Shown piece after piece: positions 233-18,460 of a stretch of DNA of 64,000 bases. The notes below the pieces were generated by a model. That model was not told the DNA's origin. It ran no database searches and was given only the letters and a program-made list of their open reading frames with translations. The translations under genes were made by a program, and so were the position numbers. This DNA is from Minisyncoccota bacterium (GTDB taxonomy: Bacteria; Patescibacteriota; Minisyncoccia; Phycocordibacterales; CALRHW01), in the NCBI GenBank assembly GCA_046350795.1, contig JAXLZT010000001.1, positions 80,468 through 144,467 of the forward strand, given 5' to 3'. Each line of letters opens with the position of its first letter. Within the stretch, counting starts at the first letter, position 1.

Positions 233-2173
233 CTAGCCAGCATGTTCTATATCCATTTTATTTTTAAGCTGGATACCGTTTGCGACGATTATCTTTTCAT
301 ACTCTTCCCTTTCTATAGTTTCCACCTCTACTAGACGCAGAGCTATGATATCCAAAAGTTTTCTGTGTTTTGTAATAATATCCTCAGTTTTTTCGTAAGC
401 TTCTTTCATTATTTTAGACACTTCAGCATCTATCATCGCGCTTACCTCTTGGGAATATTCTTTTTCTTCTACACCTCTTCCAAACATAGCTCTACCACCA
501 GAACCCTCCAAAGCTATAGGTCCTATCTTTTCAGACATTCCGTATTTTGTAACCATATCGCGCGCGAGAGCTGTAGACACTTGCAAATCATTTGATGAAC
601 CGGTAGTAAGGTCGCCAAAAATATTTTTTTCTACTACATATCCACCAAGCGAAACCGCAATGTCATCTAGAAATTCATTTTTTGATTGCATCTTTTTGTC
701 ATCGAGAGGAAGCTTTAAAGTGTAGCCAGCCGCACGTCCACGAGAGATAATAGATATTTTGTGCACTGGATCAGCATACGGAAGCACTGAAGCGACGAGA
801 GCATGTCCGGCTTCGTGATACGCAGTGATTTCTTTTTCTTTTTTTGAAAGAATGTGACTTCTTCTCTCAGGACCAAGCATCACTTTTTCAATAGAACGAA
901 TCAGATCGTACTGAGAAACTTGTGTGCGGTTCTCTCGTGCAGCTAGTATTGCACCCTCATTCATTAGAGAGTACAAATCCGCACCAGAAAATCCTGGGGT
1001 ACGCTCTGCTATCACTCCCAAATTTACATCTTCTGCAAATGGTTTTGATTTTGAATGAATAGCCAAAATTTCTTCTCTGTCTTTTCTATCTGGAAAATCT
1101 AGAGTGACGCGTCGATCGAAACGTCCTGGTCGTAGCAGAGCCGGGTCAAGCACATCAGGTCTATTTGTCGCAGCCATTACTATCACCTTTTCATTTGGCT
1201 CAAAGCCGTCCATTTCTACAAGTATTTGATTTAGTGTCTGCTCTCTTTCATCATTTCCCCCACCAGCACCCACTCCTCTGACACGACCCACAGCGTCTAT
1301 TTCATCTACGAAAATTATCGCCGGCGCATTTTGTTTTGCCACCTTAAATAGATCACGCACACGTGAAGCTCCAACACCCACAAACATTTCAACAAACTCT
1401 GAACCAGAAATAGAAAAGAAAGAAACACCCGCTTCACCCGCGACCGCTCGCGCAAGCAAAGTCTTTCCTGTGCCGGGCGCGCCCATTAGCAAAATACCTT
1501 TTGGAATTCTTGCGCCAATATCTAGAAACTTTTTTGGATTCCTCAAAAAGTCGACAATTTCTTTCAATTCTTCTTTTGCTTCTTTTACACCAGCAACATC
1601 TTTAAAAGTCACTCTTTGTTTTTTGTCATCAGGAGAAATCATTCGCGCTTTTGATTGACCAAAAGTGAAAGCTTGTACTCCCGCACCACGCACCTGCCGA
1701 GTCATAAACCACAAAAAGAAAACTACGAAAATAATAGGAACGATTATCGGTGCTAAATTTATAACCCAATACCAAAAACCACTATCCCCCCTTATTTCTA
1801 TTTTCACTTCACTGAGTTTTTCTGGAGTGACCCCATAGTTTGTGAGAGTTTCAGAAAGTGCTGTCGTATCCTCTTTTTTTGCATCCTTTTTTTCTTGACT
1901 CTTGTAAACAATGTCTAAAAATTCCCCTTTTACATAAATATCTGACACAAGACCGGCATTTACATCACGTGCAAGCTCGCTGATAGATATTGTTGTGGAT
2001 TGTTTTTCTGCACCAGACAAAAAAGAATAAATAGTAAGAATGATAAAAAATATTAAAAATGTGCTACCAATATTTAGCCACATTTTATTTTTTTCTGGCA
2101 TACCTTTTTGTGGTACAGTTTTCTTTAAAACAACTTTAAGGTTTTTCTTATTTTTTTGATTAAATAGTTTCAT
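233..2173 (-). CDS. ftsH: ATP-dependent zinc metalloprotease FtsH
   Basis: N-terminal TM segments, AAA Walker [21 protein letters not shown], zinc site HEAGHALV; ORF-track start at 2290 adds 39 non-conserved codons, ATG at 2171-2173 (MKLFNQ) preferred. Confidence 0.93.
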
Positions 2174-2501
2174 ATGGACGATTATACAATAAAAGTTGAA
2201 GGGTCGCCTATGACAGCGACCCCTCCTGGGGACCAACGAGAGTTCGTGTGGCTCATGTATCGGGATTGAGCAACCTGCTAGAAAGCCCACGATTCCTCAT
2301 GCCTGTTGCGTGAGGATTGATCCTCCGTCTCGGAGGAAGTTTCTCCCACAGCCAGCTTCCCGCGTCACATGCCCAGGCAAGGGCAATGCAAAAGACAAGA
2401 ACAAACGTGGGAGGGAAATTGTCATCGAAACTCCCCTCAGCGTAACGTTCGCGACGCATAGCGTGTTCTCCTAAAGATGTGCGTACAGACCCTGCAAGAT
2501 T

Positions 2502-2984
2502 ATGCCAAAAATCCCCCATTTTTGCTATAGTAGGCTTGTGGCAACATTTATCCAAAATAAAAAAGCGCATTTCAACTATGAAATTACAGAAAAGCTCACT
2601 GCCGGTGTAGAGCTTCTTGGCTTTGAAGTAAAATCTGTGCGCGCGGGACAAGGATCTCTCGAAGGCTCATATGTCACCGTCCGTGGTGCAGAGGCATTCA
2701 TCATCGGCATGCATGTGGCACCATTTCAAGCTTTCAATACTCCACGCGATTACGATCCACTACGCAACCGCAAACTGCTTTTAACAAAAAAAGAAATCGC
2801 TACGCTCGGAGAAATAGAAAAAAAGAAGGGTTTGACAATAGTGCCTATTTCGGTGTATAGTATGGGCCGTAAGATCAAAGTGGAGCTAGGTATAGCGCGC
2901 GGAAAGAAAAGTTTTGATAAGCGCGAGACGATAAAAAAGCGAGACTCTGATCGAGACATACGACGCGCGATAAAAGATAGATAG
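2502..2984 (+). CDS. smpB: SsrA-binding protein SmpB
   Basis: KKAHFNYEI...GFEVKSVRAG...RNRKLLL..KKE...KG.TIVP..VY...KIKVELGIARGKK motifs typical of SmpB; true start may be GTG near 2538; located just upstream of tmRNA. Confidence 0.85.
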   Translation: MPKIPHFCYSRLVATFIQNKKAHFNYEITEKLTAGVELLGFEVKSVRAGQGSLEGSYVTVRGAEAFIIGMHVAPFQAFNTPRDYDPLRNRKLLLTKKEIATLGEIEKKKGLTIVPISVYSMGRKIKVELGIARGKKSFDKRETIKKRDSDRDIRRAIKDR

Positions 2985-3022
2985 TGATGCGCAGAAAATA
3001 CGCGTCGAGCGAACATTGAAAT

Positions 3023-3429
3023 GGGGATGATCGGCCTAGACAGGAGATCAAATCATATATGTGCAAAGTGGAGCTCTGGTGACTCCTAAATCCGCCAGAA
3101 ATTCTAAGTGCAAACGCCTTAGTTACAAAAGCAAAGATCGTCTCTCCATTTTTTGGACAGAAAGATTTTGCTTTCGCTTACGCTTTAGCCTAAGCGACGT
3201 CGCACGAGCCGGCTCCCGTAAAGCTCATTGCGGTGTTATATATTCGGGATAAAGTGTCAGGGCGTTTCGACTGACATTGAAAATAATTGAAACTAGGTAC
3301 TACAAGGTTTTGTTTGTTCCCTACTTGTAGTACTCAAATCGTTCGCAAGAACGAAGAAACATCCTAAACTTTGTAGACTCATATCTGATCATTTCTTGCA
3401 CCCGAGTTCGATTCTCGGCATCTCCACAA
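3023..3429 (+). ncRNA. ssrA: transfer-messenger RNA (tmRNA, one-piece)
   Basis: 5' GGGGAUGA pairs with 3' CAUCUCC to give a 7-bp acceptor stem plus discriminator A (3426); T-arm CCGAG-UUCGAUU-CUCGG at 3401-3419; internal tag ORF 3110-3193 reading ANALVTKAKIVSPFFGQKDFAFAYALA-stop (AYALA ending typical of tmRNA tags); adjacent to smpB. Confidence 0.8.
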
Positions 3430-3552
3430 ATTAGTTAAGAAAATCACGTGATGGAAAATAAGAAAAGAGAGTGGTCTATCGTTGAGACCCAAGATTTTTA
3501 TAAAAATCTGCTAAAAAAAGCGCTAGCGACTATTCCTGAAAAAGGAGCGGCT

Positions 3553-3855
3553 ATGGTACTTGGACCTATGTTTATTATTAGAGCGCCAGAAGAAAACTTC
3601 GCCTTATTTGAAAAAGCACAAAATGAGTTACAAGAAAAAGGTGTTGAGATTTTTAATCAATTACCTTTTGTTGACTATATTATCGGAGACGCACCATTTG
3701 ATTACAAAACTAAATTCGAATTATTTTATAAAGCACTCATAAACTCTGGGAAAATTACGTCCTGCTATTTACTTCCTGATTGGGAAAAGTCAGAAGGCAC
3801 AAGAAGCGAAATCCAGTATTGCAAAGATGCGAAAATACCGGTTTTTGAGATGTAA
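3553..3855 (+). CDS. DUF4406-like (nucleoside 2-deoxyribosyltransferase-like fold) protein
   Basis: MVLGPMFIIRAPEEN...CYLLPDWEKSEGTRSEIQYCKDAKIPVF resembles the DUF4406 pattern (AGPM...LPGWE.SRGA..E); RBS AAAGGAG 5 nt upstream of ATG 3553; ORF-track start 3448 probably too early. Confidence 0.5.
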   Translation: MVLGPMFIIRAPEENFALFEKAQNELQEKGVEIFNQLPFVDYIIGDAPFDYKTKFELFYKALINSGKITSCYLLPDWEKSEGTRSEIQYCKDAKIPVFEM

Positions 3856-3909
3856 GTATTTGTTGACATAATACACAAAAAGTACTATTTTCACTATGAA
3901 ATGCACAAA

Positions 3910-3927
3910 ACCGATAACGTTATCGGT
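3910..3927. promoter_or_regulatory. 18-bp perfect palindrome ACCGATAACGTTATCGGT upstream of high-GC gene (candidate operator)
   Basis: seen directly in sequence; lies between a TTGACA-like hexamer (3872) and the start codon at 3957. Confidence 0.3.
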
Positions 3928-3956
3928 CTGAACGAAGACCTGAAAGGATGGTCCAA

Positions 3957-4421
3957 ATGAAGGAGAACGACCTAAAAATCGGGAGAAAGGTGGAAGTGAC
4001 TTCCCTTTCCAACACACAGGATTGGGGAATTGATGACCAGTACCTCGCGGGGCGCAAGCTGGGGGCCGTAGGCACAGCGCACAAGGCTGCATTCGGCAGG
4101 TGCGCTGGTCTCTGGTACATCAGGGACAACGATGGGCGACTCTCCGTCTACCACGCAGACGAGCTGAGCATCCCTCGCGCGGAGCTCGAGCTAGAGCTTG
4201 CCGAAGCCAAGAACGCCATCGAGGAGTTGATCGCAAACGTGGATAGAGCGACCAATGAGGTGCTGTACCTGACCACTGCCCTGCACCATCTCTCCAATCT
4301 TCGGAAGGGCTGGTGGCCATTTGTCGCCAAGCACAGGATCGATGACATCTTCAAGGTACTCAAGGAGGCCCGCAGACTCTTTGAAGAAAGACTTGAAAAA
4401 AGCCGTGAGAAGCCGCAGTAA
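3957..4421 (+). CDS. hypothetical protein, high-GC, coiled-coil C-terminus
   Basis: long ORF with markedly higher GC and different codon usage than neighbours; second ATG preceded by GAAAGGA. Confidence 0.55.
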   Translation: MKENDLKIGRKVEVTSLSNTQDWGIDDQYLAGRKLGAVGTAHKAAFGRCAGLWYIRDNDGRLSVYHADELSIPRAELELELAEAKNAIEELIANVDRATNEVLYLTTALHHLSNLRKGWWPFVAKHRIDDIFKVLKEARRLFEERLEKSREKPQ

Positions 4422-4542
4422 GCGAGACTCACGGCTTTCTCATTTGTCTAAAGTTTTTTAATGGTAGATAATGTATGAGGCGTTCCCGTATCGCGCATTT
4501 ATGCGCAACAGAAGTTTGGGCAACTTACTGGGAGATCACATG

Positions 4543-4818
4543 GCTACGGTGGGAGACATCGTGGAGGTCGTGGACAAAATCAAGGAGGAAAACAAGAAAC
4601 TCAAGGGGTTGGACTTCACACGAGAGCAGTGTGAACTCATCAGCAAACTTGGAGACATCGTCTTTGAGCACATCGGACTGAGAGATGTTCGACGTCCATT
4701 CGCGCTCACCATTCAGGTCAACGCAGAAGCGGAGAGTGTCTTGCACACTCTCCGGGGGTTCTTGATCCAAACACACACAGAGACAAAGAGAAAGGAGCCT
4801 GAAGGCACACTCGTGTAG
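4543..4818 (+). CDS. hypothetical protein (high-GC)
   Basis: ORF 4471-4818; start ambiguous (MATVGDIV at 4543 plausible); followed by terminator. Confidence 0.4.
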   Translation, partial: ATVGDIVEVVDKIKEENKKLKGLDFTREQCELISKLGDIVFEHIGLRDVRRPFALTIQVNAEAESVLHTLRGFLIQTHTETKRKEPEGTLV

Positions 4819-4838
4819 GCGCAAGCCTGACACACATA

Positions 4839-4880
4839 CCGACCCGTAGGAAAGAAATTTCCCGGGTCGGTTTAATATTT
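4839..4880. terminator. bidirectional terminator hairpin CCGACCCG...CGGGTCGG plus T-run
   Basis: 8-bp GC stem 4839-4846 / 4863-4870 followed by TTTAATATTTT; sits between convergent genes. Confidence 0.55.
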
Positions 4881-5438
4881 TCTAACCACACCTTTTACCA
4901 CAGCAGCGATACGAAAACTTTCTGTGGGATAAATGGGTTTGTAGTTTTTGTTGGCTGGCTCGAGCCAAACTTTACCATTTTTTGATCTGTAAAATTTCAT
5001 AGTCCACCCACCATCTACTTCCGCAATAACTATTTCACCATCGCGTGCATACTCGCGTCTCTCCGCAACCACCATGTCTCCTTCTTGTATACCTTCTTCT
5101 ATCATTGAATCACCCTTTACCTCCAACATGTAGGTTTTGCTCTGATCTTCGATAAGAAGCTCGTCTATACTCATAGTGTCTAGCTGATCCTCTTCTGCAA
5201 CAGAAGGAAAACCAGCTTCCACCAAACCAAGGACAGGGACTTGTCCAAACATATTTTTAGGAATGAGCCGGCCTTGAGAATCTTTTTCTACTATCCCCGC
5301 CTCTACCATTTTATTGATGAGTTTGTAGACAGCATTTTTAGATTTGAAACCAACGAGTGCCATGATTTCTTTGTATCCAGGCATTCGTCGATGCTTTTTA
5401 TAAAATCCTAAAATTTTTTGTTTGTATTGTTCGTTCAT
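4872..5438 (-). CDS. lexA: LexA-family transcriptional repressor (S24 peptidase)
   Basis: N-terminal winged-helix (PGYKEIMALVGFKSKNAVYKLINKM), Ala-Gly cleavage site VEAGFP, catalytic Ser in VKGDSM and Lys in TMKFYRS. Confidence 0.85.
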   Translation of the reverse strand: MNEQYKQKILGFYKKHRRMPGYKEIMALVGFKSKNAVYKLINKMVEAGIVEKDSQGRLIPKNMFGQVPVLGLVEAGFPSVAEEDQLDTMSIDELLIEDQSKTYMLEVKGDSMIEEGIQEGDMVVAERREYARDGEIVIAEVDGGWTMKFYRSKNGKVWLEPANKNYKPIYPTESFRIAAVVKGVVRKY

Positions 5439-5459
5439 TTAAATCTATTGCACTCCTGA

Positions 5460-5654
5460 TTAAAGAAACGACGCAAAGCCAAATGATCTTGTGAGCCAAG
5501 CACTGCGACGCATCTGACTGAGCTGACTGCGAAGACGCTTGTGTGCTTTTGCTTCTTTGGAATATGATTGGCCTTTTATAATTTTTAAATCTATCTGATC
5601 ATTTAGCCTTTTGAGCTCATCGTGTATTGAATATAACATTCTGTTTTTACTCAT
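5460..5654 (-). CDS. small hypothetical protein co-transcribed upstream of lexA
   Basis: 64-aa basic ORF between LexA box and lexA, same strand. Confidence 0.35.
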   Translation of the reverse strand: MSKNRMLYSIHDELKRLNDQIDLKIIKGQSYSKEAKAHKRLRSQLSQMRRSAWLTRSFGFASFL

Positions 5655-5697
5655 GTTTTTTATGTTATTAAATAATTAATCTTTATATAGAGTATAG

Positions 5698-5713
5698 GTG
5701 AACTAGGGTTCAC
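5698..5713. promoter_or_regulatory. LexA (SOS) box GTGAAC-TAGG-GTTCAC
   Basis: perfect GAAC-N4-GTTC palindrome (Cheo-box type) about 45-60 bp upstream of the lexA operon start and in the divergent promoter of the 5867 gene. Confidence 0.55.
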
Positions 5714-5866
5714 CAGTCAATGTGGACAAGATTCTAGAAAATAAAAAATGGGTGCGGTCAACTCTACCCTATTTAAATTACGAGTGTATACTTTTATACG
5801 GCGTTCACAAACATTGTGCTGAGAAACAGACCCGGTCTTGCCACTTACAAAAGGAATGGTGACACA

Positions 5867-6205
5867 ATGTCCACCGAAGAAACACCGGAATACGATTTCG
5901 AGGGCGTAGCCCACAGGGTGTACCCAGGAACAAGGACTCGCAACCCCAACATTGCACCGATCCACGTCAGGGCATTCGGTACGTGCGGAGGAATCCAGCA
6001 TCCCATTCACGCTCAGCTGTTGGGTCTCGAAAGACCACAGTCGGCCACTGACCAACGCTCTCAGCCCTCTCTCTTTGGGGATGATGAAGAAAAGAGGTGC
6101 TGTGGCAATCCATCTTGTGCAGGATCTTGTCCGCACAAGAGAGAGGGTGCCGAGATCTCCGCTGACACCGACAGCGTCAACGTCACCTCTTCGGTGAAGC
6201 ACTAG
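5867..6205 (+). CDS. hypothetical Cys-rich protein (high-GC)
   Basis: ORF 5816-6205; MSTEETPEY start likely; CCGNPSCAGSCPH motif; followed by strong terminator. Confidence 0.45.
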   Translation: MSTEETPEYDFEGVAHRVYPGTRTRNPNIAPIHVRAFGTCGGIQHPIHAQLLGLERPQSATDQRSQPSLFGDDEEKRCCGNPSCAGSCPHKREGAEISADTDSVNVTSSVKH

Positions 6206-6237
6206 CCCACATCGCGACCAACGTGGTCGCGGTACAA

Positions 6238-6283
6238 GCCCAACCCCTATGGACGGGGGTTGGGCACTTTTTTTATTTTTTTT
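6238..6283 (+). terminator. rho-independent terminator GCCCAACCCC-tatggac-GGGGGTTGGGC plus T9
   Basis: seen in sequence. Confidence 0.65.
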
Positions 6284-6299
6284 GATGTAAAATAAGTAA

Positions 6300-7376
6300 A
6301 TGGAAAAAAACACTCCACAATTTTTCACCAGAACAGAAGAAGCTTGGGATGCAATGTTGGCCGAATGCTCAAAAGCAGAGCACTCTATAGATATAGAACA
6401 ATACATCTTTACAAATGATACCGTCGGTAAACGTTTCCTAGAGACATTAATACGAAAACAAAAAGAAGGAGTGAGAGTGCGTATGATTTGCGACACAGTG
6501 GGAAGTTATTTTTTTTATAATTCACTCACCCCAGATGAACTAAGAGCAATAGGAATACAAATACAATTTTTTAATATCATAAGTCCGTGGAGGTTGCATA
6601 ATATTTTTTCTTGGTATTTTAGAGATCACAGAAAAATACTCGTTATAGACGGAAAAACAGCTATCGTCGGTGGATCTGGAATACGAGAAGATATGCGTTT
6701 TTGGCGTGACACAAATGTGAAAGTGACGGGTGCGATAGCAGAAGAAATGCAAGAAATATTTAATGAAATGTGGGTGCTTGCTAAAGAAAAAAATATATTT
6801 AAAAGAATAAACAGGTCTAGAAGAAGAAAAAAACTGCAACACATCGTTACCAATGCCCCCTACCTACGTAGACGATTTTTATATCGCAGATTTCTAAAAG
6901 AAATACGTTATTCAAAAAAATATATTTTACTAACAACGCCGTATTTTGTACCAAATCAAAAATTACTTAATGCTTTATGCTACGCTGTGCGACGTGGAGT
7001 GGATGTGCGAGTTATAGTACCAAAAACATCTGACACCATCTTAGTAAACCGCGCATCTCATAGTTTTTTCTATGATCTACTAATGGGAGGGGTAAAAATA
7101 TACCAATACCCACATTATTTTATACACACAAAGACAGCCGTAATAGACGACACATGGTCTACGATAGGTAGTTTTAATTTTGATAATCTCAGTTTCTTTT
7201 ATAATCACGAAGCAAACATAGTTTCCAACAACAAATCGTTTATTTTCCCTCTAAAAAGACACTTTGAATATGATATGGCCAAATCTGAGATGGTCACTCT
7301 AGAGAATTGGAAAAAAAGGCCTATTTTATGGAAATTTCGTGAATTTATGGTTACCCCAATAAGGCGTTTTCTATAA
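6300..7376 (+). CDS. phospholipase D-family protein (cardiolipin synthase-like)
   Basis: two HKD motifs: HRKILVIDGKTAIVGGSGI and HTKTAVIDDTWSTIGSFNFD. Confidence 0.8.
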   Translation: MEKNTPQFFTRTEEAWDAMLAECSKAEHSIDIEQYIFTNDTVGKRFLETLIRKQKEGVRVRMICDTVGSYFFYNSLTPDELRAIGIQIQFFNIISPWRLHNIFSWYFRDHRKILVIDGKTAIVGGSGIREDMRFWRDTNVKVTGAIAEEMQEIFNEMWVLAKEKNIFKRINRSRRRKKLQHIVTNAPYLRRRFLYRRFLKEIRYSKKYILLTTPYFVPNQKLLNALCYAVRRGVDVRVIVPKTSDTILVNRASHSFFYDLLMGGVKIYQYPHYFIHTKTAVIDDTWSTIGSFNFDNLSFFYNHEANIVSNNKSFIFPLKRHFEYDMAKSEMVTLENWKKRPILWKFREFMVTPIRRFL

Positions 7377-7461
7377 ATAACATCAAGCCCCGTAGCCTAT
7401 TGCTCTATTTTCAAAAGAATGCTATATTTTTGGGACGTTATCAGGTTATTTCACACATATA

Positions 7462-7971
7462 TTGAGTACCAAGGTTAGAATCAATCATCAAATAAAAGCA
7501 CCGCAATTGCGGGTTTTAAGTGCCGATGGGGAAAATTTTGGGGTTATCTCTCTAGAAGAGGCCCTAAAAAAGGCAGAATTGGCTGGATTAGATCTCATTG
7601 AGATATCGCCAAACGCTACACCACCCGTTGCAAAGATAATGGACTATGGTAAATTCCAGTACGACGATAACAAAAAGCAGAAGCTCGCAAAGGCAAAAGC
7701 TCACGTAGTGGAAGTCAAAAATATACAGGTAAAAGTAGGTACCGGCGATCACGATCTAGCTCTAAAAGCAAAAAAGGCTTCAGAGTGGCTAGAAGAAGGA
7801 AATCGAGTAAAAATAGATCTTTTTCTACCAGGAAGAACTAAATACATGGATCTAAACTTTCTAAAAGAAAGAATGGATAGAGTACTTAAGCTCATCACAG
7901 TAGAATTTAAAATCGCAGATGCGCCAAAGAAAAGCCTAAAAGGACTTACAGCAATAATAGAGAGAAAATAG
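7462..7971 (+). CDS. infC: translation initiation factor IF-3
   Basis: INHQIKAPQLRVLSADGENFGVISLEEALKKAELAGLDLIEISPNATPPVAKIMDYGKF matches IF-3; TTG (or upstream ATA) non-canonical start as usual for infC. Confidence 0.9.
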   Translation: MSTKVRINHQIKAPQLRVLSADGENFGVISLEEALKKAELAGLDLIEISPNATPPVAKIMDYGKFQYDDNKKQKLAKAKAHVVEVKNIQVKVGTGDHDLALKAKKASEWLEEGNRVKIDLFLPGRTKYMDLNFLKERMDRVLKLITVEFKIADAPKKSLKGLTAIIERK

Positions 7972-7994
7972 AAAAGTGCACAAAAATAAAAATT

Positions 7995-8180
7995 ATGAAA
8001 ACAAACAAATCATTTTCAAAAAGATTAAAGCTTACAAAGCAAGGAAAAATCATTGCTCGTAAGACTGGTCAAAACCACTTCAATTCAAAAGAGAGTGGTC
8101 GAAGTCAGATTTCAAAAAAGCGATCTGTGGGTTTTGTGATGAGTAATAAAACAAAAAGCCGATATCTGATAAACATGTAA
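7995..8180 (+). CDS. rpmI: 50S ribosomal protein L35 (bL35)
   Basis: small basic protein between infC and rplT, KTNKSFSKRLKLTKQGKI pattern. Confidence 0.85.
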   Translation: MKTNKSFSKRLKLTKQGKIIARKTGQNHFNSKESGRSQISKKRSVGFVMSNKTKSRYLINM

Positions 8181-8199
8181 TAAATTTTAAATAAAGACC

Positions 8200-8544
8200 A
8201 TGACAAGAGTAAAAAAAGGAGTAAATGCATTAAAGACAAGAAAAAATGTACTCAAAAGAGTAAAGGGTTTTAGATTTGGACGTGGAACAAAAGAGCGCCA
8301 AGCATACGACGCTATCGCCCACGCCGGAGCACACTCTTTTGCACATCGACGCGATAAGAAAAATGATATGCGAAAGCTTTGGAATGTACGTATCAATGCT
8401 GCCCTAGATCCAAAAGGTCTTTCTTACAGTAAATTTATTGGTGCTTTAAAAAAGAAAAATATTGTCATAGACAGAAAAATACTTTCTCTCCTTGCAGACA
8501 AAAACCCAGAAACATTTGATCGAATCATAGCAAAGGTAAAATAA
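8200..8544 (+). CDS. rplT: 50S ribosomal protein L20 (bL20)
   Basis: MTRVKKGVNALKTRKNVLKRVKGFRFGR...LWNVRINAA...SYSKFIGALKK. Confidence 0.92.
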   Translation: MTRVKKGVNALKTRKNVLKRVKGFRFGRGTKERQAYDAIAHAGAHSFAHRRDKKNDMRKLWNVRINAALDPKGLSYSKFIGALKKKNIVIDRKILSLLADKNPETFDRIIAKVK

Positions 8545-8576
8545 CAAAAAACCCGCAGTAAGCGGGTTTTTTGTTT
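8545..8576. terminator. terminator CCCGC-agta-GCGGG plus T-run
   Basis: seen in sequence after rplT. Confidence 0.65.
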
Positions 8577-9961
8577 TAACAAGGCAACTCGTAAGTCTTC
8601 CCCCTTTCTGGATACAGTGCATCCACTCCCACATAGTCACGCAATCTTTGAACCAAAAAAAGGCCTGATTTTGGTTCACCTAAAACAACAAAAACTTTTT
8701 TTACAGTTTTACTAGTATGTTCTACGAATTCTATTAAATGATCAGAATCCTTGTGCGCAGAATATCCAGAAATATTTTCTATTCTTGCCCTTACAGATAC
8801 GTGCTCCCCTTTTATCACCACCTCACGCACGCCATCTTGTAGTTGGCGACCAAAAGTGCCCAGCCCTTGATACCCGATAAGTAAAATAGTATTTTTTTCA
8901 TCTGGCAAATAGTGCGCTTCATGTCCCACCACTCGCCCACCATTACTCATACCAGAACCAGCAATAATTATTTTTGGATTTGGTGTATTTATAATTCCTC
9001 GAGAATCCTCGCTACGAATAACATTTTTGAGTTTTGGAAAATTAAATATATGGTCACCACCAGCAATATCCCTTCTCGTAGCCTCGTTGAAGAGTTTTTG
9101 CGAACTCTGACGTTGATATATATCTGTAATCTTTATTGCAAGCGGAGAATCTAGGTAAACCGGAATTTGCGGTACAACTCCATCTTCCATCATATTATTT
9201 ATTTTATATAAGATAATCTGTGTGCGTTCTAGAGAAAAAGAAGGAATCACGAGAACTCCTTGTTTTTTTATAGTATCTTTTATGACCGCCACAAGTTTCT
9301 TATCAGAATCAGCCTGATTTTCATGATTCCTGTCACCGTATACACTATCTAAAACAAGATAGTCTGCATCCGTAACCCACTCTGTATCCTTTAAAAGCAT
9401 AGCCGGAGAATTACCCAAATCGCCACAAAAAACGATCTTTTTACCATTGTATGAAAGCTCGTATATAGCCGAACCAAGCACGTGTCCAGCATCCTTTAAA
9501 TATACTTTAAAGTCCGGCGCGCTTAGGTTGCCACCGACCACTTTCTCCTGATGATATGGAATAGTCTGCCAAAGCGAAAAAGCTTGGTTTACATGAATAT
9601 CAAAATACATTGGCGGTTTACCATTTGCCTTTGACTCCATTTCAATAATTTTTACAGCGTCTTCTAGCATCAGACGTGCTATTTCTCTCGTCTGCTCTGT
9701 AGAATAAATAACTCCCTTAAAACCGTCTTTTACGAGTTTTGGAATTCTACCTATATGATCTATGTGAGCGTGTGTTACAAAAAGTATATCAATACTCGCT
9801 GGATCATATGAAAAATCTTTTTTATTTTCTTCTTCTGCGTACTGACTTCCCTGCATTAATCCGCAATCAACAAGTATTTTTGTCTTGTCGCTTTCTAATA
9901 AAAAGTTGGCGCCAGTCACGGTGCCCACTCCCGTGCAAAATGTAAGTTTAAGAGATGACAT
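8576..9961 (-). CDS. metallo-beta-lactamase fold, beta-CASP family RNA-metabolising hydrolase
   Basis: HAHIDHIGRIP motif, MBL fold then beta-CASP-like C-terminal region; start taken at MSSLKLTF (9961), ORF-track start 10027. Confidence 0.7.
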   Translation of the reverse strand: MSSLKLTFCTGVGTVTGANFLLESDKTKILVDCGLMQGSQYAEEENKKDFSYDPASIDILFVTHAHIDHIGRIPKLVKDGFKGVIYSTEQTREIARLMLEDAVKIIEMESKANGKPPMYFDIHVNQAFSLWQTIPYHQEKVVGGNLSAPDFKVYLKDAGHVLGSAIYELSYNGKKIVFCGDLGNSPAMLLKDTEWVTDADYLVLDSVYGDRNHENQADSDKKLVAVIKDTIKKQGVLVIPSFSLERTQIILYKINNMMEDGVVPQIPVYLDSPLAIKITDIYQRQSSQKLFNEATRRDIAGGDHIFNFPKLKNVIRSEDSRGIINTPNPKIIIAGSGMSNGGRVVGHEAHYLPDEKNTILLIGYQGLGTFGRQLQDGVREVVIKGEHVSVRARIENISGYSAHKDSDHLIEFVEHTSKTVKKVFVVLGEPKSGLFLVQRLRDYVGVDALYPERGKTYELPC

Positions 9962-11328: not shown

Positions 11329-11462
11329 GTAAGTATAAAAGAGGGGTTTGAAAAAGACAAGTTTAAAAATCAAAAAAGTGACTCCCTCTCTAAAGCGCTT
11401 CGCTAACCCATTCGGGAATTACTTTCTTGATTTTTTTACATTATCCTTTATTATTCAAAATT

Positions 11463-12143
11463 ATGAATGACTATGTTTTACTATCAGAAAGATTCTCCCG
11501 CTTTAAAGAAATAAGTAGAGAGGAGGAAACTATAATTAATCTAATAAGACAAAACATTTTGGTCAATGAAAATTGCAAAATATTGGATATTGGTTCAAAT
11601 AGAGGTGCAATATCTCATGCCCTGCAAAAAAATACAAACAACATAACCTTAATAGATGTAGAAGATTTTGACATTAAGACAGGTGCAAGATTTTTTAAAG
11701 GAAAATGGGAAGATCTAAATCTAGATGAAAAATTTGATGTTATCCTAGCTAGTCATATTTGGGGACATTTTCATTATGAAAAAACAACAAGAAAGTCTTT
11801 CGAAAAAGCTCTAAACTCCCTTACCCCTAAAGGCAAAATAATTCTTTGTTACAATTCCAACGATGATTTTGTTGGAAAACTAGTAAATTTTTGTAATACA
11901 ATATTTAATGATTTCCAATACGATATCTTTGATGAATCATTATTGGACAATCCCAAAATAGTAAACTTTTCTTTAACATTAAAATGTAAAGATTTCGGAG
12001 AGTTGGCAGATTTAGTCCAGGTATTGATTATCGTTCCAGATACTGAATTTGAGTCTAAGAAAGCAGAGATAGAAAGTTTTTTGCGCAACAATCTGGAAAA
12101 ACCAGAATTTGCTATAAACCAAAAACTGGTAATCATTGGTTAG
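11463..12143 (+). CDS. class I SAM-dependent methyltransferase
   Basis: motif I ILDIGSNRG, acidic residue after beta2 (LIDVED). Confidence 0.6.
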   Translation: MNDYVLLSERFSRFKEISREEETIINLIRQNILVNENCKILDIGSNRGAISHALQKNTNNITLIDVEDFDIKTGARFFKGKWEDLNLDEKFDVILASHIWGHFHYEKTTRKSFEKALNSLTPKGKIILCYNSNDDFVGKLVNFCNTIFNDFQYDIFDESLLDNPKIVNFSLTLKCKDFGELADLVQVLIIVPDTEFESKKAEIESFLRNNLEKPEFAINQKLVIIG

Positions 12144-12184
12144 TAAACAAAAAGTCCGTACCCTTTTTAGTACTTTTTGTTTAC
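12143..12184. terminator. bidirectional AT-rich hairpin GTAAACAAAAAGT...ACTTTTTGTTTAC
   Basis: 13-bp inverted repeat between convergent methyltransferase and map. Confidence 0.45.
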
Positions 12185-12188
12185 TACC

Positions 12189-12959
12189 TTACTCCCCCTT
12201 TGTCAAAACAATTGGCGGGCCATCTGTGATGGCCACAGTGTGTTCAAAGTGCGCGCTACGTTTGCCGTCGCGTGTGCGAAAAGTGTATCCATCCTGATCT
12301 AGTTTTATTTTTCCTGTACCAATATTTAGCATCGGCTCTATAGCTATGACCATACCGGGCTTGAGTAATATACCTGTACCTTTTTTACCGGTATTTGGTA
12401 CATACGGCTCTTCATGCACAGCATACCCCACACCATGACCAGCAAGACCTTCAGCATTTGAAAATCCACGTGATGTAGCAAAAGTTTCGATAGCGTATCC
12501 AATGTCACCTATGCGAGCTCCGCCACGCGCTGCTTCTATTCCCTTTTGCAAAGCTTCACGAGTCACTTTCAAAAGTGTCTTTGCTTCATCATCTATTTTT
12601 CCCACAGGCACAGTGATAGCAGAATCTACCACCATGCCTTTGTGTGTAATACAAAAATCCAAACCTACGATGTCGCCCTCTTTTAAGATACGATCTTCGC
12701 TCGGTATGCCATGTACCACTTCATCGTTTATAGAGACACACATACTAGCCGGATATGGTCTTTTTGCTCCATATGGCTTGTAGTGTAAAAGAGATAGCTC
12801 ATCCCCACCCTCTAGGGCAAGCTCGCGCGCACGGTCATCTAGAGCCTTTGTAGACACTCCCGGTGCCACCATCTTTTCTAGTTCACGCAAGATAAAAGCC
12901 AAGCGCTTTCCACCCTCTCTTAGAATCTCTATTTCCTCCTGTGTCTTTATTGTAACCAT
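12189..12959 (-). CDS. map: methionine aminopeptidase type I
   Basis: metal ligands in DIVGLDFC, GHGVG, VIAIEPM, HFEHTVAIT. Confidence 0.9.
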   Translation of the reverse strand: MVTIKTQEEIEILREGGKRLAFILRELEKMVAPGVSTKALDDRARELALEGGDELSLLHYKPYGAKRPYPASMCVSINDEVVHGIPSEDRILKEGDIVGLDFCITHKGMVVDSAITVPVGKIDDEAKTLLKVTREALQKGIEAARGGARIGDIGYAIETFATSRGFSNAEGLAGHGVGYAVHEEPYVPNTGKKGTGILLKPGMVIAIEPMLNIGTGKIKLDQDGYTFRTRDGKRSAHFEHTVAITDGPPIVLTKGE

Positions 12960-12995
12960 GGCAACAAGTGTATGAAACAAAAAGATAACTTTTAT

Positions 12996-13589
12996 TTAGT
13001 ATAAAATCAACTTTTCTTTGATGTCGGCAAAAACTTTTTCTCTCCCCTGCTCACCGTCTACTTCTATAAAATTATAGTTGGGATTGTTGCGATAATACTC
13101 TATAGCTGGCACCACATCAGTATCAAACCAGCCCAGACGTGTTTCTATGCCTTCTGGTGAGTCATCAGATCGTCCACGTGACATCAAATGCTTTCTGGAC
13201 CATTCGCGACTGACTCTAGGATAGATTACATTTGCCTTTCGCCCATAAAAAGAAAGCGCTGAATCGAAACTTTCAGCCTCTATGAGAGATCGAGCGACAC
13301 CGTCAATAATCAGATGCTCGTCTCCTTTGAAATTTTTTATCATCACATCAGCGGCAAGCCATATCGCAAGAAAATCTGGCTGACGTTCTTTTCTAGAATA
13401 AATTTTTGCAGAAAGCTCGCTCGTATAACCCTTTTCTTTTATAAACTCACGAAATTTTTCTCCGGACTCTAGATGAAAAACCGGACGGACTGCTGTGTCT
13501 TTTTCTTTTAAATATGCTTTTAAAAATTCAGCCTGAGTCCCCTTACCGCACCCCGAATTGCCTATGAATATAAATGTTTGTGGGTTCAT
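12996..13589 (-). CDS. adk: adenylate kinase-like nucleoside monophosphate kinase
   Basis: P-loop IGNSGCGKGTQAE, LIIDGVARS; conserved position after secY. Confidence 0.78.
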   Translation of the reverse strand: MNPQTFIFIGNSGCGKGTQAEFLKAYLKEKDTAVRPVFHLESGEKFREFIKEKGYTSELSAKIYSRKERQPDFLAIWLAADVMIKNFKGDEHLIIDGVARSLIEAESFDSALSFYGRKANVIYPRVSREWSRKHLMSRGRSDDSPEGIETRLGWFDTDVVPAIEYYRNNPNYNFIEVDGEQGREKVFADIKEKLILY

Positions 13590-13667
13590 GAGTTAAGTAT
13601 ACCAGTAGACAAGAGAAAAACATCATAGCGATTGACGCGTGCTTTTCAAATGATGTTTTTCGTTGGC

Positions 13668-14939
13668 CTAGTACTCTCTTATTGAGATTTGCGCCTCAGT
13701 CTTTTTGATGAGATCAATAACCACAGAAACCACGATAAGTAGCGCGGTACCACCAACAGAGAAAGCTGTGATACCTGTACCCGCTTTTACGACAAGAGGA
13801 AGCACAGCGATGATACCTAGGAATAGCGCACCAAAAAGTGTGAGACGAGTGAGTATGCGAGCGATATGATCTGAAGTGGATTGACCTGGTCGCACACCTG
13901 GGATAAATGCTCCACCTTTTTGCAGGTTTGTAGAAATAGAGTCTGGATCAAAAGTCACGGCTGTGTAGAAATATGTGAAGATAAACACAAGGAAGAAATA
14001 CAATACACCGTGTATCCAGCCGTTATTTAGGAAATCCAGGACAAACCTTGAAACACTCTGAAATGTTGCATTGTTTACATTATGAAGGAAATTAAAAATC
14101 ATCTGAGGGAAAAGCAGGATAGAAAGAGCAAAGATGATTGGAATCACTCCAGCTTGATTGAGTCGCAAAGGCAAATATGTAGACACGCCACCGTATACCT
14201 TTGCTCCACGAACACGCTTTGCATATGTAATAGGAATAGGTCGCTCTGCTTCTGTAATCACCACTACACCAGCGATGACCACGAGTGTCACAGCAACAAA
14301 CAAAATGTATGTAGGTATTTGAGAAGGTTCAAAAATCAAAGCAAGTTGAGAAATACCTGAAGGAAGTCTAGATACTATACCAGCGAAAATGATAAGTGAT
14401 AGACCGTTACCTATACCATACTCAGAAATAAGCTCACCTATCCACATAAGCAACATAGCACCAGCTACAATGATGGCGATATTTACTATCTGATCAAAAC
14501 CACTTATAGAAGCGAGTACACCGTTTGTTCTCAAAAGTGCCAAAAATCCAAAAGCTTGCACAGCTGCAATAGGCACAGTGAGCATACGTGAATATTGTGA
14601 AAACTTTTTTCGTCCAGCATCTCCCTCCTCTTGGTATAAAGCCTTTAATCTAGGAGACATGATGGTCGAAAGTTGCATGATAATAGAAGCCGTAATGTAT
14701 GGACTCACTCCAATCATCACTATAGATAGATTTGAAAAACCACCTCCAGAGAAAATATTGAAAAGATTTAGAAAATCATTACCAGCAAAAAGAGCTTGTA
14801 ACTTTAAAGTATCCACACCTGGAATAGGAATAGCAGCGAAAAGACGAAAGACCACTAGAGCTCCCAATGTGAACAAAATTCTCTTTCGTAGGATTCGATC
14901 CTGAAAGATTGATTTTATTTTTGCGAAAAAAGTTTTCAT
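13668..14939 (-). CDS. secY: preprotein translocase subunit SecY
   Basis: 10-TM protein, GGGFSNLSIVMIGVSPYITASIIMQL. Confidence 0.93.
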   Translation of the reverse strand: MKTFFAKIKSIFQDRILRKRILFTLGALVVFRLFAAIPIPGVDTLKLQALFAGNDFLNLFNIFSGGGFSNLSIVMIGVSPYITASIIMQLSTIMSPRLKALYQEEGDAGRKKFSQYSRMLTVPIAAVQAFGFLALLRTNGVLASISGFDQIVNIAIIVAGAMLLMWIGELISEYGIGNGLSLIIFAGIVSRLPSGISQLALIFEPSQIPTYILFVAVTLVVIAGVVVITEAERPIPITYAKRVRGAKVYGGVSTYLPLRLNQAGVIPIIFALSILLFPQMIFNFLHNVNNATFQSVSRFVLDFLNNGWIHGVLYFFLVFIFTYFYTAVTFDPDSISTNLQKGGAFIPGVRPGQSTSDHIARILTRLTLFGALFLGIIAVLPLVVKAGTGITAFSVGGTALLIVVSVVIDLIKKTEAQISIREY

Positions 14940-14940
14940 A

Positions 14941-15375
14941 TTATTCTGCTACTGTACCGCCAGCTTTTTCTATCTTTGTCTTTGCGCCAACTGATACTAG
15001 ACATCCTGAAATAGTTAGCTTTTTTGTAAGGTCACCACCAGCAAGAATCTTTACTGTTGCTCGTGTTCCCTTTCTTAAGTTTATCACACCCTTTTCTACT
15101 AGTGTGTTTGGGGTTACGCTTTCACCATTTGAAAAAGCAGTCTCTATTACGCCCAGGTTTACAGATATAGATTTTGAACGAATAGTGTTGAAAGAATATC
15201 CGCGTAGCTTTGGTAGACGCTTTATGAAATCACGAATCTCAGGTCGTAGCTTTCCACCTGCGCGAGCTTTCTGACCCTTTGTGCCTCGGCCAGAAGTTTT
15301 GCCACGCTTACCGCCACGTCCCACTGATTGAGACTTTTTGTTTGATGTTTTTCTTTTTATATTATGAATCTGCAT
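14941..15375 (-). CDS. rplO: 50S ribosomal protein L15 (uL15)
   Basis: Gly/Lys-rich N-terminus GRGGKRGKTSGRGTKGQKARAGG; operon position. Confidence 0.92.
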   Translation of the reverse strand: MQIHNIKRKTSNKKSQSVGRGGKRGKTSGRGTKGQKARAGGKLRPEIRDFIKRLPKLRGYSFNTIRSKSISVNLGVIETAFSNGESVTPNTLVEKGVINLRKGTRATVKILAGGDLTKKLTISGCLVSVGAKTKIEKAGGTVAE

Positions 15376-15379
15376 GGTT

Positions 15380-16024
15380 TTATGCTTTTACACTTTCAGC
15401 TGCCACTTTTGCCGCTTCTACTGAAGCTTTTACCTTTCTTGTTTTTAGTTTTCTCAAAGCTTCGATAGCTGCACGGGCATTGTTTAATTTGTTTTTACTT
15501 CGAGAAAAAATCTTTGCACCTGAGTTTTTAATACCAGCAAGCTCTAGTACAGGTCGTACTGAGCTACCTGCGATAATACCTTTTCCTGGAGCTGGCATAA
15601 TCATTACCCTAGATCCACAGTACTTTGCCTCCACGTCATGAGAAATAGACATGTCTTTTGTCAAAGTCACAGTAATCATGTTTTTCTTTGCATCTCGCAC
15701 TGCTTTATCAATAGCCAAAGAAGTGTCTCCTGCTTTTCCTATACCCACTCCCACAGAGCCTTTTTTATTACCAGCCACTATAGCCACACTAAAGCTAAAT
15801 CGGCGTCCTCCAGTTACCACACGAGTCACTCGGCGAATACTGATGATTTTCTGATCAAATTCTGGCTTTGCTCGAGCTTCGCGTCGTGGAGATTTTCTCG
15901 GATTTTTCTGAAAAGAAGATCGGCGATCTTGACCACCTACACCAAAAGTCTTTTGAGTTTTAGACTCTGTTGTCGCAGTCTCTACTGGTGGAATATTTTC
16001 TGTTGTAGTTGTTTCTGTTTCCAT
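15380..16024 (-). CDS. rpsE: 30S ribosomal protein S5 (uS5) with N-terminal extension
   Basis: VTRVVTGGRRFSFSVAIVAGNKKGSVGVGIGKA...IMPAPGKGIIAG. Confidence 0.92.
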   Translation of the reverse strand: METETTTTENIPPVETATTESKTQKTFGVGGQDRRSSFQKNPRKSPRREARAKPEFDQKIISIRRVTRVVTGGRRFSFSVAIVAGNKKGSVGVGIGKAGDTSLAIDKAVRDAKKNMITVTLTKDMSISHDVEAKYCGSRVMIMPAPGKGIIAGSSVRPVLELAGIKNSGAKIFSRSKNKLNNARAAIEALRKLKTRKVKASVEAAKVAAESVKA

Positions 16025-16027
16025 ATA

Positions 16028-16378
16028 TTAAAACTTTAATCCTCCCTCTCTAGCACCCTCTGCCACCGCTTTTATCTTGCCAGTATACACAAATCCGCCT
16101 CGATCAAAAACAACTTCTTTGATGTTTTTTTCCAAAGCTTTTTTTGCTATCTCTTTTCCAGCAGCCAAAGCCTTCTCTGTGCCAGTCTTTCCTTTTACAT
16201 CTTTTGTAGAAGAAGCGACTAGAGTCTTGCCCGCTTCATCATCTATAAGCTGTAGATAAAGAGCTGTGTTTGTTTTTGCTACTGAAAAACGTGGGCGTAG
16301 AGAAGTACCAGAAATCACTGTTCGGATTTTCTTGTGTCGTCTTACTCTTTTTTCTGTTTTAATCTGACTTTTACTCAT
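16028..16378 (-). CDS. rplR: 50S ribosomal protein L18 (uL18)
   Basis: RPRFSVAKTNTALYLQLIDD...FDRGGFVYTGKIKAVAEGAREGGL. Confidence 0.92.
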   Translation of the reverse strand: MSKSQIKTEKRVRRHKKIRTVISGTSLRPRFSVAKTNTALYLQLIDDEAGKTLVASSTKDVKGKTGTEKALAAGKEIAKKALEKNIKEVVFDRGGFVYTGKIKAVAEGAREGGLKF

Positions 16379-16387
16379 GTTATTTTT

Positions 16388-16918
16388 TTATGCGGCCTTC
16401 TTTCCCTGCTTTCGGCGAATTACTTCATCTGAATATCGGATACCCTTACCTTTGTAAGGCTCAGGCTTTTTCAGTGAACGAATCTTTGCCACAAACTGAC
16501 CTACTTTTTCTATATCAATACCAGTCACAGTGATATTACCTTTTTCAGAGACCACTTTTAGATCAGCTGGGATAGGCACTTTTACTAAATGTGAAAAACC
16601 AAGTCCCATCACTAGCTCAGCTCCCTTTACTTCCGCCTTGTATCCAATACCTTCTATGATGAGCTTTTTTTCAAATGCTTTGTTTACACCAGCAATCATG
16701 TTGGTTAGATGAGAAGCAAATGTGCCCCAAAGAGCTACGTTTTTGTTTTCTTTGTTTAGAGAAAGAACAGCAGTACCGTCAGCAACAGTCACCACTACTC
16801 CGCCACCAAACTCCCTTGAGATCTCACCGAGAGGACCTTTTACTATGACCATATCACCAGAAGTTTTCACTTCTGTTTTCTCTGGGATTGTTATTACTTT
16901 TTTACCGATTCTAGACAT
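16388..16918 (-). CDS. rplF: 50S ribosomal protein L6 (uL6)
   Basis: MSRIGKKVITIP...GIGYKAEVKG...GFSHLV; operon position. Confidence 0.92.
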   Translation of the reverse strand: MSRIGKKVITIPEKTEVKTSGDMVIVKGPLGEISREFGGGVVVTVADGTAVLSLNKENKNVALWGTFASHLTNMIAGVNKAFEKKLIIEGIGYKAEVKGAELVMGLGFSHLVKVPIPADLKVVSEKGNITVTGIDIEKVGQFVAKIRSLKKPEPYKGKGIRYSDEVIRRKQGKKAA

Positions 16919-16944
16919 TTTTGTTTTATTTTCTTCGCTGATTT

Positions 16945-17334: not shown

Positions 17335-17344
17335 ATATGTATTT

Positions 17345-17530: not shown

Positions 17531-17550
17531 ATTGTGTAGGGATTAGAATA

Positions 17551-18138: not shown

Positions 18139-18149
18139 ACTTTTGAAAT

Positions 18150-18455: not shown

Positions 18456-18460
18456 AATAT

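Follow-up and report, generated by a model that had tools for sequence, protein, structure and literature searches.

The interval between ssrA and infC in a Minisyncoccota bacterium is probably a plastic slot with genes of several ages

Introduction

Integrase-mediated islands and prophages are known from the 3' end of ssrA, the gene of transfer-messenger RNA (tmRNA), with CP4-57 in Escherichia coli and VPI in Vibrio cholerae as examples. Hotspots without an integrase, also called regions of genome plasticity, are found between core genes and often next to transfer RNA (tRNA) or tmRNA genes. In this study, we analyzed a stretch of 64,000 nucleotides (nt) from a Minisyncoccota bacterium (assembly GCA_046350795.1, contig JAXLZT010000001.1, positions 80,468 to 144,467; hereafter the window), in which the region downstream of ssrA (3430-6290 of the window) had been predicted to be a possible integrated island. 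Between ssrA and infC lie a gene with a DUF4406 domain, two genes rich in guanine and cytosine (GC), orf157 and orf92, the lexA gene with the small orf64 upstream of it, a further GC-rich open reading frame (ORF), orfX, and a gene of the PLD family. Comparison with related loci indicates that the interval is probably a long-standing plastic slot holding material of at least three ages, and not one island.

Like the islands in ssrA, the slot has variable DNA that begins exactly at the tmRNA 3' end, and its content differs between strains and species. Unlike them, it possesses neither an integrase nor a duplicate of the tmRNA 3' end, its units of 0.4-1.4 kb are of mixed ages, and its lexA is a core gene. 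The slot shares with the integrase-less hotspots a recurrent gain, loss and replacement in one core interval across the class, which is compatible with homologous recombination. It differs from them in its location in a genome of likely ~0.56 Mb, judged by the longest contig that carries orf157, and in its cassettes of one or two genes with their own promoter and terminator. The slot matches the known concept of integrase-less hotspots flanking tRNA and tmRNA genes, and the orphan families in it are new and uncharacterized.

Phages carry so-called morons, autonomous units of promoter, ORF and terminator whose base composition is unlike that of their surroundings. The GC-rich ORFs resemble morons in having their own sigma-70-like promoter and hairpin terminator and a sharply different composition, and the N-terminal domain of Orf157 resembles small SH3-like phage proteins. 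However, these units reside in a bacterial chromosome with no surrounding prophage, and their GC content is above that of the host, not below it. The lexA gene is comparable to the autoregulated lexA of the Gram-positive type (Cheo/SOS box), as it encodes a LexA equivalog with an S24 domain and has a GAAC-N4-GTTC palindrome in its own promoter. It differs by extended half-sites (GGTGAAC/GTTCACC), a predicted co-transcribed ORF of 64 amino acids (aa) upstream and a hypervariable divergent ORF. The SOS network of Patescibacteria has reportedly been analyzed by Sanchez-Osuna, Barbe and Erill in 2017.

Results

A variable interval between conserved neighbors

By gene content and closest relatives, the window was assigned to Paceibacteria, a part of Patescibacteria (candidate phyla radiation). 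About 170 related loci were compared with the window, and a scan for smpB yielded 80 loci; individual loci are denoted by L numbers. The gene order ftsH (minus strand), smpB, ssrA, then infC, rpmI, rplT and a beta-CASP gene recurs in loci of Paceibacteria (order from ftsH to rplT in L005-L040). The distance from tmRNA to infC ranges from 138 nt in L038 to 8.4 kb in L024, and the content varies by lineage; for instance, L005 possesses a TIM-barrel gene with a GC content of 0.52. The slot of L024, from a more distant member of Paceibacteria (11441-19805 of that locus), encodes an Xre-type helix-turn-helix protein (HTH_3) and a DUF6941 protein and contains fragments of an rve-type integrase/transposase core, so remnants of mobile elements do occur in the slot of other lineages. 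Based upon the variable length and the differing content, the gap between ssrA and infC represents a class-wide plastic slot.

The alignment of the window with L001, L005, L007 and L008 shows identity through the end of the tmRNA gene (...CATCTCCAC) and unrelated DNA beyond it. In L007 and L008, the stop codon of lexA is located a few nucleotides past the tmRNA end, and nucleotides 3429-4871 of the window are therefore additional DNA relative to these two relatives. At the other side, the PLD gene adjoins infC in L005, L007, L008, L089, L009 and L035. The combination of lexA, orf64 and PLD is present in the slots of the window, L005, L007, L008 and L089; L085 has lexA and orf64, and its contig ends before PLD would be reached. 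The PLD gene is the right-hand, genus-level occupant of the slot.

Replacement of a cassette within the species

The youngest differences were found directly at the tmRNA gene among four recovered near-identical assemblies. The backbone of L001 is 99.9% identical on either side, and nucleotides 3429-3862 are swapped there for a segment of 681 nt that encodes NT5C in the opposite direction. The two sequences part after the last base of the tmRNA gene (left breakpoint, 3428/3429) and meet again where the promoter preceding orf157 begins (right breakpoint). The DUF4406 gene is retained in L002, which is 99.3% identical to the window. The sister lineage L085 carries an NT5C gene whose product shares 92% aa identity with that of L001, which makes NT5C probably the older state. 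The window is overall nearer to L001 than to L002, yet it has the DUF4406 gene in common with L002, and the density of single-nucleotide polymorphisms (SNPs) between strains is mosaic. Both the shared cassette and the mosaic SNPs are consistent with exchange by homologous recombination. Genes are indeed gained and replaced in the 3' flank of ssrA, as seen from the NT5C swap in L001 and the absence of 3429-4871 from L007 and L008.

The DUF4406 assignment is based on PF14359 (32 bits against a cut-off of 22, residues 47-132) and PHROG 355 (4.6e-5), with phage matches of only 28-33% identity. The gene is not compositionally foreign, with a GC content at third codon positions (GC3) of 0.31. The DUF4406 and NT5C families are both associated with deoxynucleoside or deoxynucleotide metabolism.

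A second polymorphism of presence and absence between strains was observed elsewhere in the window. A stretch of low GC (0.29) at 11342-12188 contains a methyltransferase gene (11427-12143), which is present in L001 and L003 and absent from L002 and L004.

GC-rich genes inside and outside the interval

The window has a GC content of ~40%, and the GC3 values of its 74 ORFs are bimodal: 68 ORFs fall at 0.20-0.40, six at 0.58-0.70, and none between. Three of the six (orf157, orf92 and orfX, with overall GC of 0.51-0.56) are located in the predicted island. The GC contents at the first, second and third codon positions are 0.60/0.37/0.70 in orf157, 0.59/0.32/0.64 in orf92 and 0.57/0.51/0.60 in orfX, and the DUF4406 gene, lexA and orf64 have GC3 similar to that of the host. 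All features listed in the original prediction, namely the tmRNA gene, the DUF4406 gene, the LexA operon and three GC-rich ORFs, are present. The boundaries given for the first and third GC-rich ORFs (3957-4421 and 5867-6205) were confirmed, and the second ORF starts at an ATG at 4540 instead of 4543. All three differ from the host in GC3; orf157 and orf92 have a clear coding signature, whereas the profile of orfX is flat.

The other three GC-rich ORFs lie among housekeeping genes at 32.6, 39.5 and 59.3 kb, so GC-rich genes are not restricted to ssrA. All three lack a Pfam match, and each is equipped with a promoter-like site and a terminator hairpin of its own. No common motif was found upstream or downstream of the GC-rich genes, which shows that they are not copies of one repeated element. 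The GC-rich ORF of 387 aa, HG387, belongs to a family of 39 uncharacterized proteins, one of them labelled Patescibacteria. In a sample related to L085, its homolog is found in the same place (recJ-HIT-gene) with 84% aa identity, a nonsynonymous divergence (dN) of 0.098, a synonymous divergence (dS) of 0.31 and a GC content of 0.58. A homolog with host-like GC is located inside a glycan-biosynthesis cluster of another genome. The notion that all GC-rich genes are hyperdivergent was rejected, as HG387 is an ordinary ortholog in the sister lineage. High GC is neither specific to ssrA nor evidence of recent arrival. We infer that the GC-rich genes probably originated in Patescibacteria of higher GC, or in mobile elements of these, at a time before the present species diverged.

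The orf157-orf92 module

Only two close homologs of Orf157, P0002 (52% identity) and P0003 (38%), were found among 1.8 billion representative proteins, and a search of 5.8 billion proteins yielded only three members of the Orf92 family. Both close homologs of orf157 are syntenic, and a homolog of orf92 follows each of them. The gene order is NT5C (minus strand), orf157, orf92 and lexA (minus strand) in L085, and ftsH, smpB, ssrA, orf157, orf92 and glycan genes in L086. In L087, lexA is followed by a convergent homolog of orf92. The module is lineage-restricted: it is present, on the ssrA side of lexA, in four lineages (window, L085, L086 and L087) and missing from three (L005, L007 and L008); L005 has different genes at this position, and lexA abuts the tmRNA gene in L007 and L008. 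Orthologs in matching positions of three further lineages show that the GC-rich pair is older than the species.

When the window lineage is compared with L085, the DNA of NT5C and lexA is 90-98% identical, and the identity falls abruptly to 55-70% over the module. The divergence amounts to dN 0.41 and dS 1.03 for orf157 and dN 0.41 and dS 1.5 for orf92, compared to dN 0.018 and dS 0.37 for lexA and dN 0.034 and dS 0.33 for NT5C. The module proteins therefore diverge ~10-20 times faster than their neighbors, with conserved regulatory DNA. The promoter block is kept in L085 and L086 despite an identity of only 50-60% in the coding DNA that follows, and in L086 the block begins 8 nt after the tmRNA end. 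The stop codon of orf157 is located in the loop of a terminator hairpin (4400-4437), which is followed by a predicted orf92 promoter (4444-4472). The whole spacer forms a peak of 84% identity amid 55-70% in the alignment of the window, L085 and L086. In addition, the 5' leader of orf157 (3910-3927) contains a perfect palindrome of 18 bp, ACCGATAACGTTATCGGT, which is not kept in L085 and L086.

Judged from codon composition (GC1 > GC2 < GC3), homologs in frame and a dN/dS of 0.4 for orf157 (0.3-0.4 over both genes), orf157 and orf92 are protein-coding. The AlphaFold2 (AF2) model of Orf157 from an alignment of six sequences reached a predicted local distance difference test (pLDDT) score of 84 and displays an N-terminal SH3-like barrel with two long helices; the model from the single sequence was uninformative (pLDDT 47). 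Matches to this fold are weak and involve SH3-like domains, including small phage proteins, and remote relatives of the N-terminal domain occur in phage-like arrays of small co-directional ORFs. Neither protein has a match in Pfam, PHROG, PADLOC (E up to 0.01) or NCBIfam, and a metagenome scan with the Orf92 profile returned none. The search of phage databases, which had been proposed as a check on the orphan proteins, found no relatives of Orf157 or Orf92 in the viral contigs of IMG/VR and none of Orf157 among the INPHARED phages. Local hypermutation was considered and rejected: strain SNPs are mosaic and not piled up in the GC-rich ORFs (none in orf92, 0-1 in orfX and 5-10 in orf157).

The module GC3 (orf157/orf92) is 0.70/0.64, 0.56/0.59 and 0.50/0.44 in three lineages whose hosts are at ~0.3. 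The module could be ancestral, vertically inherited, fast-evolving and lost in some lineages, with its high GC kept by selection or by a bias such as GC-biased gene conversion at a recombination hotspot. The lineages examined at the DNA level share position, promoter and terminator, the GC is still high after long divergence, HG387 keeps a GC of 0.56-0.58 in two species at a low dS of 0.31, and no donor was found, all in accordance with an ancestral module. However, GC3 jumps from ~0.30 to 0.58-0.70 with no intermediates, far above the generally known effects of biased conversion. Moreover, homologs of HG387 with host-like GC exist in other Patescibacteria and point to transfer among genomes that differ in GC, and the Orf157 N-terminal domain has its relatives in phage-like arrays. 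We regard an ancestral module as somewhat unlikely.

The lexA operon

The lexA product matches Peptidase_S24 (5.7e-27) and exceeds the cut-off of the NCBIfam lexA equivalog TIGR00498 (120 bits against 110.95). It was aligned at full length with Thermotoga LexA (3k2z, 2e-19). The N-terminal winged-helix DNA-binding domain scores below the cut-off in Pfam (LexA_DNA_bind, E 0.081), whereas residues 11-187 are included in the PDB alignment. The translation contains ...LVEAGFPS... with the Ala-Gly cleavage site, ...KGDSMIE... with the Ser and ...WTMKFY... with the Lys; the first two are at the expected positions in the 3k2z alignment.

LexA is 91-98% identical over L005, L007, L008 and L085 (92% to L005, 91.5% to L008 and 98% to L085), with dN of 0.02-0.05 among these loci. 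Housekeeping proteins show similar values, with FtsH at 91% to L005 and 85% to L008 and IF3 at 91-92%; between the window and L005, dS is 1.18 for lexA and 1.34 for ftsH. A total of 297 lexA-related stretches were found in metagenomes, and 80 loci were kept, 57 of which have orf64 directly upstream of lexA (tblastn). No tmRNA gene was detected in the 32 of these metagenome loci that were scanned for one. Of the 65 loci with enough upstream sequence, 62 have the palindrome GGTGAAC-N4-GTTCACC at a distance of 230-440 nt ahead of lexA, against a background rate of 0.011 per 450 nt. In the window, the LexA box is the sole GAAC-N4-GTTC site in 64 kb, and it is 100% identical in L005, L007 and L008.

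From these comparative sequence data, we consider orf64 a conserved, co-transcribed predicted partner of LexA, and the operon is predicted to be autoregulated through the GGTGAAC-N4-GTTCACC box. As identities and dS are like those of housekeeping genes, the operon and box are conserved at loci elsewhere and the TIGR00498 cut-off is passed, lexA and orf64 are inherited vertically, and lexA is not cargo of an island but appears to be the host's own SOS repressor. Orf64 has no family match in Pfam, PADLOC or NCBIfam; it is helical with a hydrophobic C-terminal tail (...WLTRSFGFASFL). The hairpin between the convergent orf92 and lexA is probably a bidirectional terminator, and it is missing in L007 and L008, where lexA abuts the tmRNA gene.

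Absence of integration signatures

The last 27 nt of the tmRNA gene occur once in the window when up to three mismatches are allowed, that is, without an attachment (att) repeat. A search with seeds of 11-20 nt retrieved only an internal match of 13 nt, TATCTGATCATTT, between the tmRNA gene (3382-3394) and orf64 (5592-5604). This match was rejected as an att site and attributed to chance and codon constraint: in orf64 it falls on the conserved codons for LNDQIDLK, and it stops short of the tmRNA 3' end. Pfam detected no family of integrases, recombinases or transposases among the ORFs of 2253-7376, and no integrase was found within ~10 kb among the Pfam families of genes called in near-identical Logan contigs. 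The statement of the original prediction that an integrase and a repeat of the tmRNA 3' end are lacking is thus upheld by the 27-mer, seed and Pfam searches alike. Direct and inverted repeats in 2000-9000 are limited to AT-rich chance matches, and no target-site duplication was seen at the slot. Integron cassettes were also considered and rejected: there is no integrase, and the 3' hairpins resemble ordinary terminators, some with T-runs.

The whole of 3430-6290 might still be one decayed island or prophage remnant in the ssrA 3' end that has since lost its integrase and att sites. Its location at ssrA, the clustering of three of the six GC-rich ORFs of the 64 kb, the occurrence of DUF4406 and S24/LexA-like families in phages too and the absence of the region from more distant Paceibacteria would agree with a single island. 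Besides the missing att repeat and integrase, however, the contents do not share one history. lexA, orf64 and the operator are conserved at other loci of Patescibacteria and evolve like housekeeping genes, and the DUF4406 gene, lexA and orf64 have host-like GC3. The phyletic spread also differs, with the cassette varying at the strain level, the module at the sub-genus level and the block from lexA to PLD at the genus level. A single decayed island is extremely unlikely. The original prediction had offered a decayed island or independent insertions as alternatives, and the latter come close to the truth. It had further placed the lexA operon in the possible island and named a lexA history congruent with the host as an argument against this; the identities of LexA indeed track those of housekeeping genes.

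orfX and other features

The positional ORFs in L005, L007 and L008 share with orfX only a C-terminal Cys cluster (CCGNPSCAGSC, CSGKKCGHCVEC, CGGDNCGKCPMC and CRNGESEKKACAHNCANC). Even L007 and L008 are unalignable in the body of this ORF, despite 92% identity in their flanks. No match was found in PADLOC, Pfam, PHROG or NCBIfam, no gene is called across the orfX interval in the Logan contigs, and the RNA folds better than shuffled sequences with a z-score of -3.3. orfX either encodes a small, hypervariable protein that ends in a Cys motif or specifies an RNA.

These properties bear on the possibility that some or all of the GC-rich 'genes' are non-coding, being structured RNAs or chance ORFs in GC-rich DNA poor in stop codons. 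The GC-rich patches contain many overlapping ORFs on both strands, orfX and the spacer between ftsH and smpB have flat profiles over the three codon positions with fold z-scores of -3.3 and -3.2, and orfX has no Logan gene call, as would be expected of non-coding DNA. For orf157 and orf92, however, this is refuted by the codon-position pattern, dN/dS and the confident AF2 model. As to orfX, the Cys-rich C-terminal motif recurs in its positional counterparts. Only the tmRNA is matched in Rfam, even at E up to 1. A non-coding nature of the GC-rich ORFs is very unlikely on the whole.

A conserved membrane protein of 62-66 aa with Cys motifs (MEKNxCxCTHH…KCxCC) is encoded between orfX and PLD in four relatives, and no counterpart was detected by tblastn in the 64-kb window. 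The ftsH-smpB spacer has a GC content of ~0.5, and its counterpart measures only 22-48 nt in L005, L008 and L086. On the minus strand, it ends with an intrinsic terminator (2225-2198) immediately upstream of ftsH and contains an ORF of 88 aa (2253-2519) without the coding GC pattern. The spacer could specify a small RNA or encode a small membrane protein. ARAGORN detected no tRNA genes in the 64-kb window, with the tmRNA gene as its sole match; several relatives have genes of tRNA-Ile(TAT) and tRNA-Ser within a few kb of ftsH. The coordinates of all features are given in Table 1.

Table 1. Features at the ssrA-infC interval of the window, its distal GC-rich ORFs, and the Cys-motif membrane protein of relatives
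Feature	Position	Strand	Basis
ftsH	233-2173	-	ORF list
GC-rich spacer between ftsH and smpB, 330 nt	2174-2501	.	read from sequence
smpB, conserved left anchor of the slot	2502-2984	+	Pfam SmpB 3.1e-50; order ftsH(-)/smpB/ssrA kept in L005-L036
tmRNA (ssrA)	3023-3428	+	ARAGORN; Rfam RF00023, 117.8 bits
Strain-variable cassette	3429-3862	+	replaced in strain L001
DUF4406 gene, nucleoside 2-deoxyribosyltransferase-like	3448-3855	+	PF14359
Module promoter block, TTGACAT ... TCACTATGAAATGCACA	3863-3909	+	predicted sigma-70-like site 3863-3891; conserved in L085 and L086
orf157	3957-4421 (alternative start 3948)	+	coding GC pattern; homologs
Conserved spacer with terminator hairpin, T-run and orf92 promoter	4400-4539	+	alignment of window, L085 and L086
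orf92	4540-4818	+	GC3 0.64; homologs
GC-rich hairpin ACCGACCCG...CGGGTCGGT between convergent orf92 and lexA	4838-4870	.	read from sequence
lexA	4872-5438	-	Peptidase_S24; TIGR00498
orf64, 64 aa, upstream of lexA in the same operon	5460-5654	-	ORF; tblastn
Promoter of the orf64-lexA operon	5691-5720	-	promoter scan: TTGACT, 18 nt, TATACT
LexA box GGTGAACTAGGGTTCACC, 18 bp	5697-5714	-	fills the spacer between -35 and -10
orfX, GC-rich, divergent from the lexA operon	5867-6205	+	ORF list; GC profile
Two hairpins closing the orfX unit, the second an intrinsic terminator with T-run	6213-6265	+	first (6213-6231) by eye; second (6238-6265) by terminator scan
PLD-family (cardiolipin synthase-like) gene	6300-7376	+	PLDc_2 1.9e-46
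infC, rpmI, rplT	after 7376	+	ORF list; near-identical Logan contigs
Further GC-rich ORF among housekeeping genes	32619-33356	-	GC3 within 0.59-0.67
Further GC-rich ORF among housekeeping genes	39510-40673	+	GC3 within 0.59-0.67
Further GC-rich ORF among housekeeping genes	59260-59871	-	GC3 within 0.59-0.67
Cys-motif membrane protein, position in L005	~8770-8970		
Cys-motif membrane protein, position in L007	2375-2563		
Cys-motif membrane protein, position in L008	~4330-4530		
Cys-motif membrane protein, position in L089	5768-5959		

Discussion

The layers of the proposed plastic slot would differ in age and behavior. The PLD gene, perhaps orfX, and the presumably autoregulated orf64-lexA SOS operon would form a resident layer, vertically inherited at the genus level. 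An intermediate layer would be the self-contained GC-rich pair of orf157 and orf92, each with its own AT-rich promoter of the sigma-70 type and hairpin terminator. The pair was most probably acquired once, from a mobile or phage-like source of higher GC, and may since then have been under weak or diversifying selection, possibly with exchange of alleles between species. The youngest layer would be the cassette of 0.4-0.7 kb bounded by the tmRNA 3' end and the module promoter; this cassette carries either DUF4406 or NT5C and is polymorphic within the species. Turnover would proceed without a site-specific integrase. DNA taken up by the cell would recombine homologously at conserved flanks, namely the tmRNA gene, the module promoter and lexA, and the tolerant intergenic gap would occasionally also gain or lose DNA by illegitimate events. 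Homologous recombination at the flanks would be the most economical mechanism.

Several observations weigh against a slot of such layers. No insertion mechanism is visible, as integrase, transposase, att sites and target-site duplication were all not found in the searches described above, and we infer recombination from the patterns alone. The stop of similarity at the tmRNA 3' end may just mark the end of functional constraint. HG387 keeps its high GC as an ordinary ortholog, so high GC is no proof of recent transfer, and no donor of the GC-rich genes was matched in viral contigs or phage genomes. The background dS relative to the lineage of L085 and L167 is uneven (0.37 in lexA, 0.65 in HIT and 0.93 in recJ); the module dS of 1.0-1.5 is therefore clearly above that of its flanks and only modestly above the genome-wide maximum. 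Note also that, across the seven lineages, a single gain of the module with several losses looks the same as several gains.

As to function, our best guess is that orf157 and orf92 form an accessory, moron-like module in conflict with phages or mobile elements. A more specific proposal, which we rate as unlikely, is that they are a conflict module of two genes found only in Paceibacteria, which would serve phage exclusion, defence or addiction; its promoter and terminator scaffold would be kept while the proteins diversify and divergent alleles are swapped between species. The hypervariable orfX with its Cys motif, beside the LexA-controlled promoter, could then be a second, SOS-linked locus.

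These results do not overturn current understanding. For the lexA gene adjoining ssrA in these bacteria of the candidate phyla radiation, they amount to a correction at the level of annotation, in which a putative mobile cargo becomes the organism's own likely SOS regulator, and the LexA operator of Patescibacteria, GGTGAAC-N4-GTTCACC, can be read straight from the comparative data. Orf157, Orf92 and OrfX add three tiny, fast-evolving orphan families that are candidates for a role in conflict or in the SOS response. Even with its strong reduction, a genome of likely ~0.56 Mb would still maintain a defined site of gene turnover, at which units of one or two genes are exchanged without a visible integrase.

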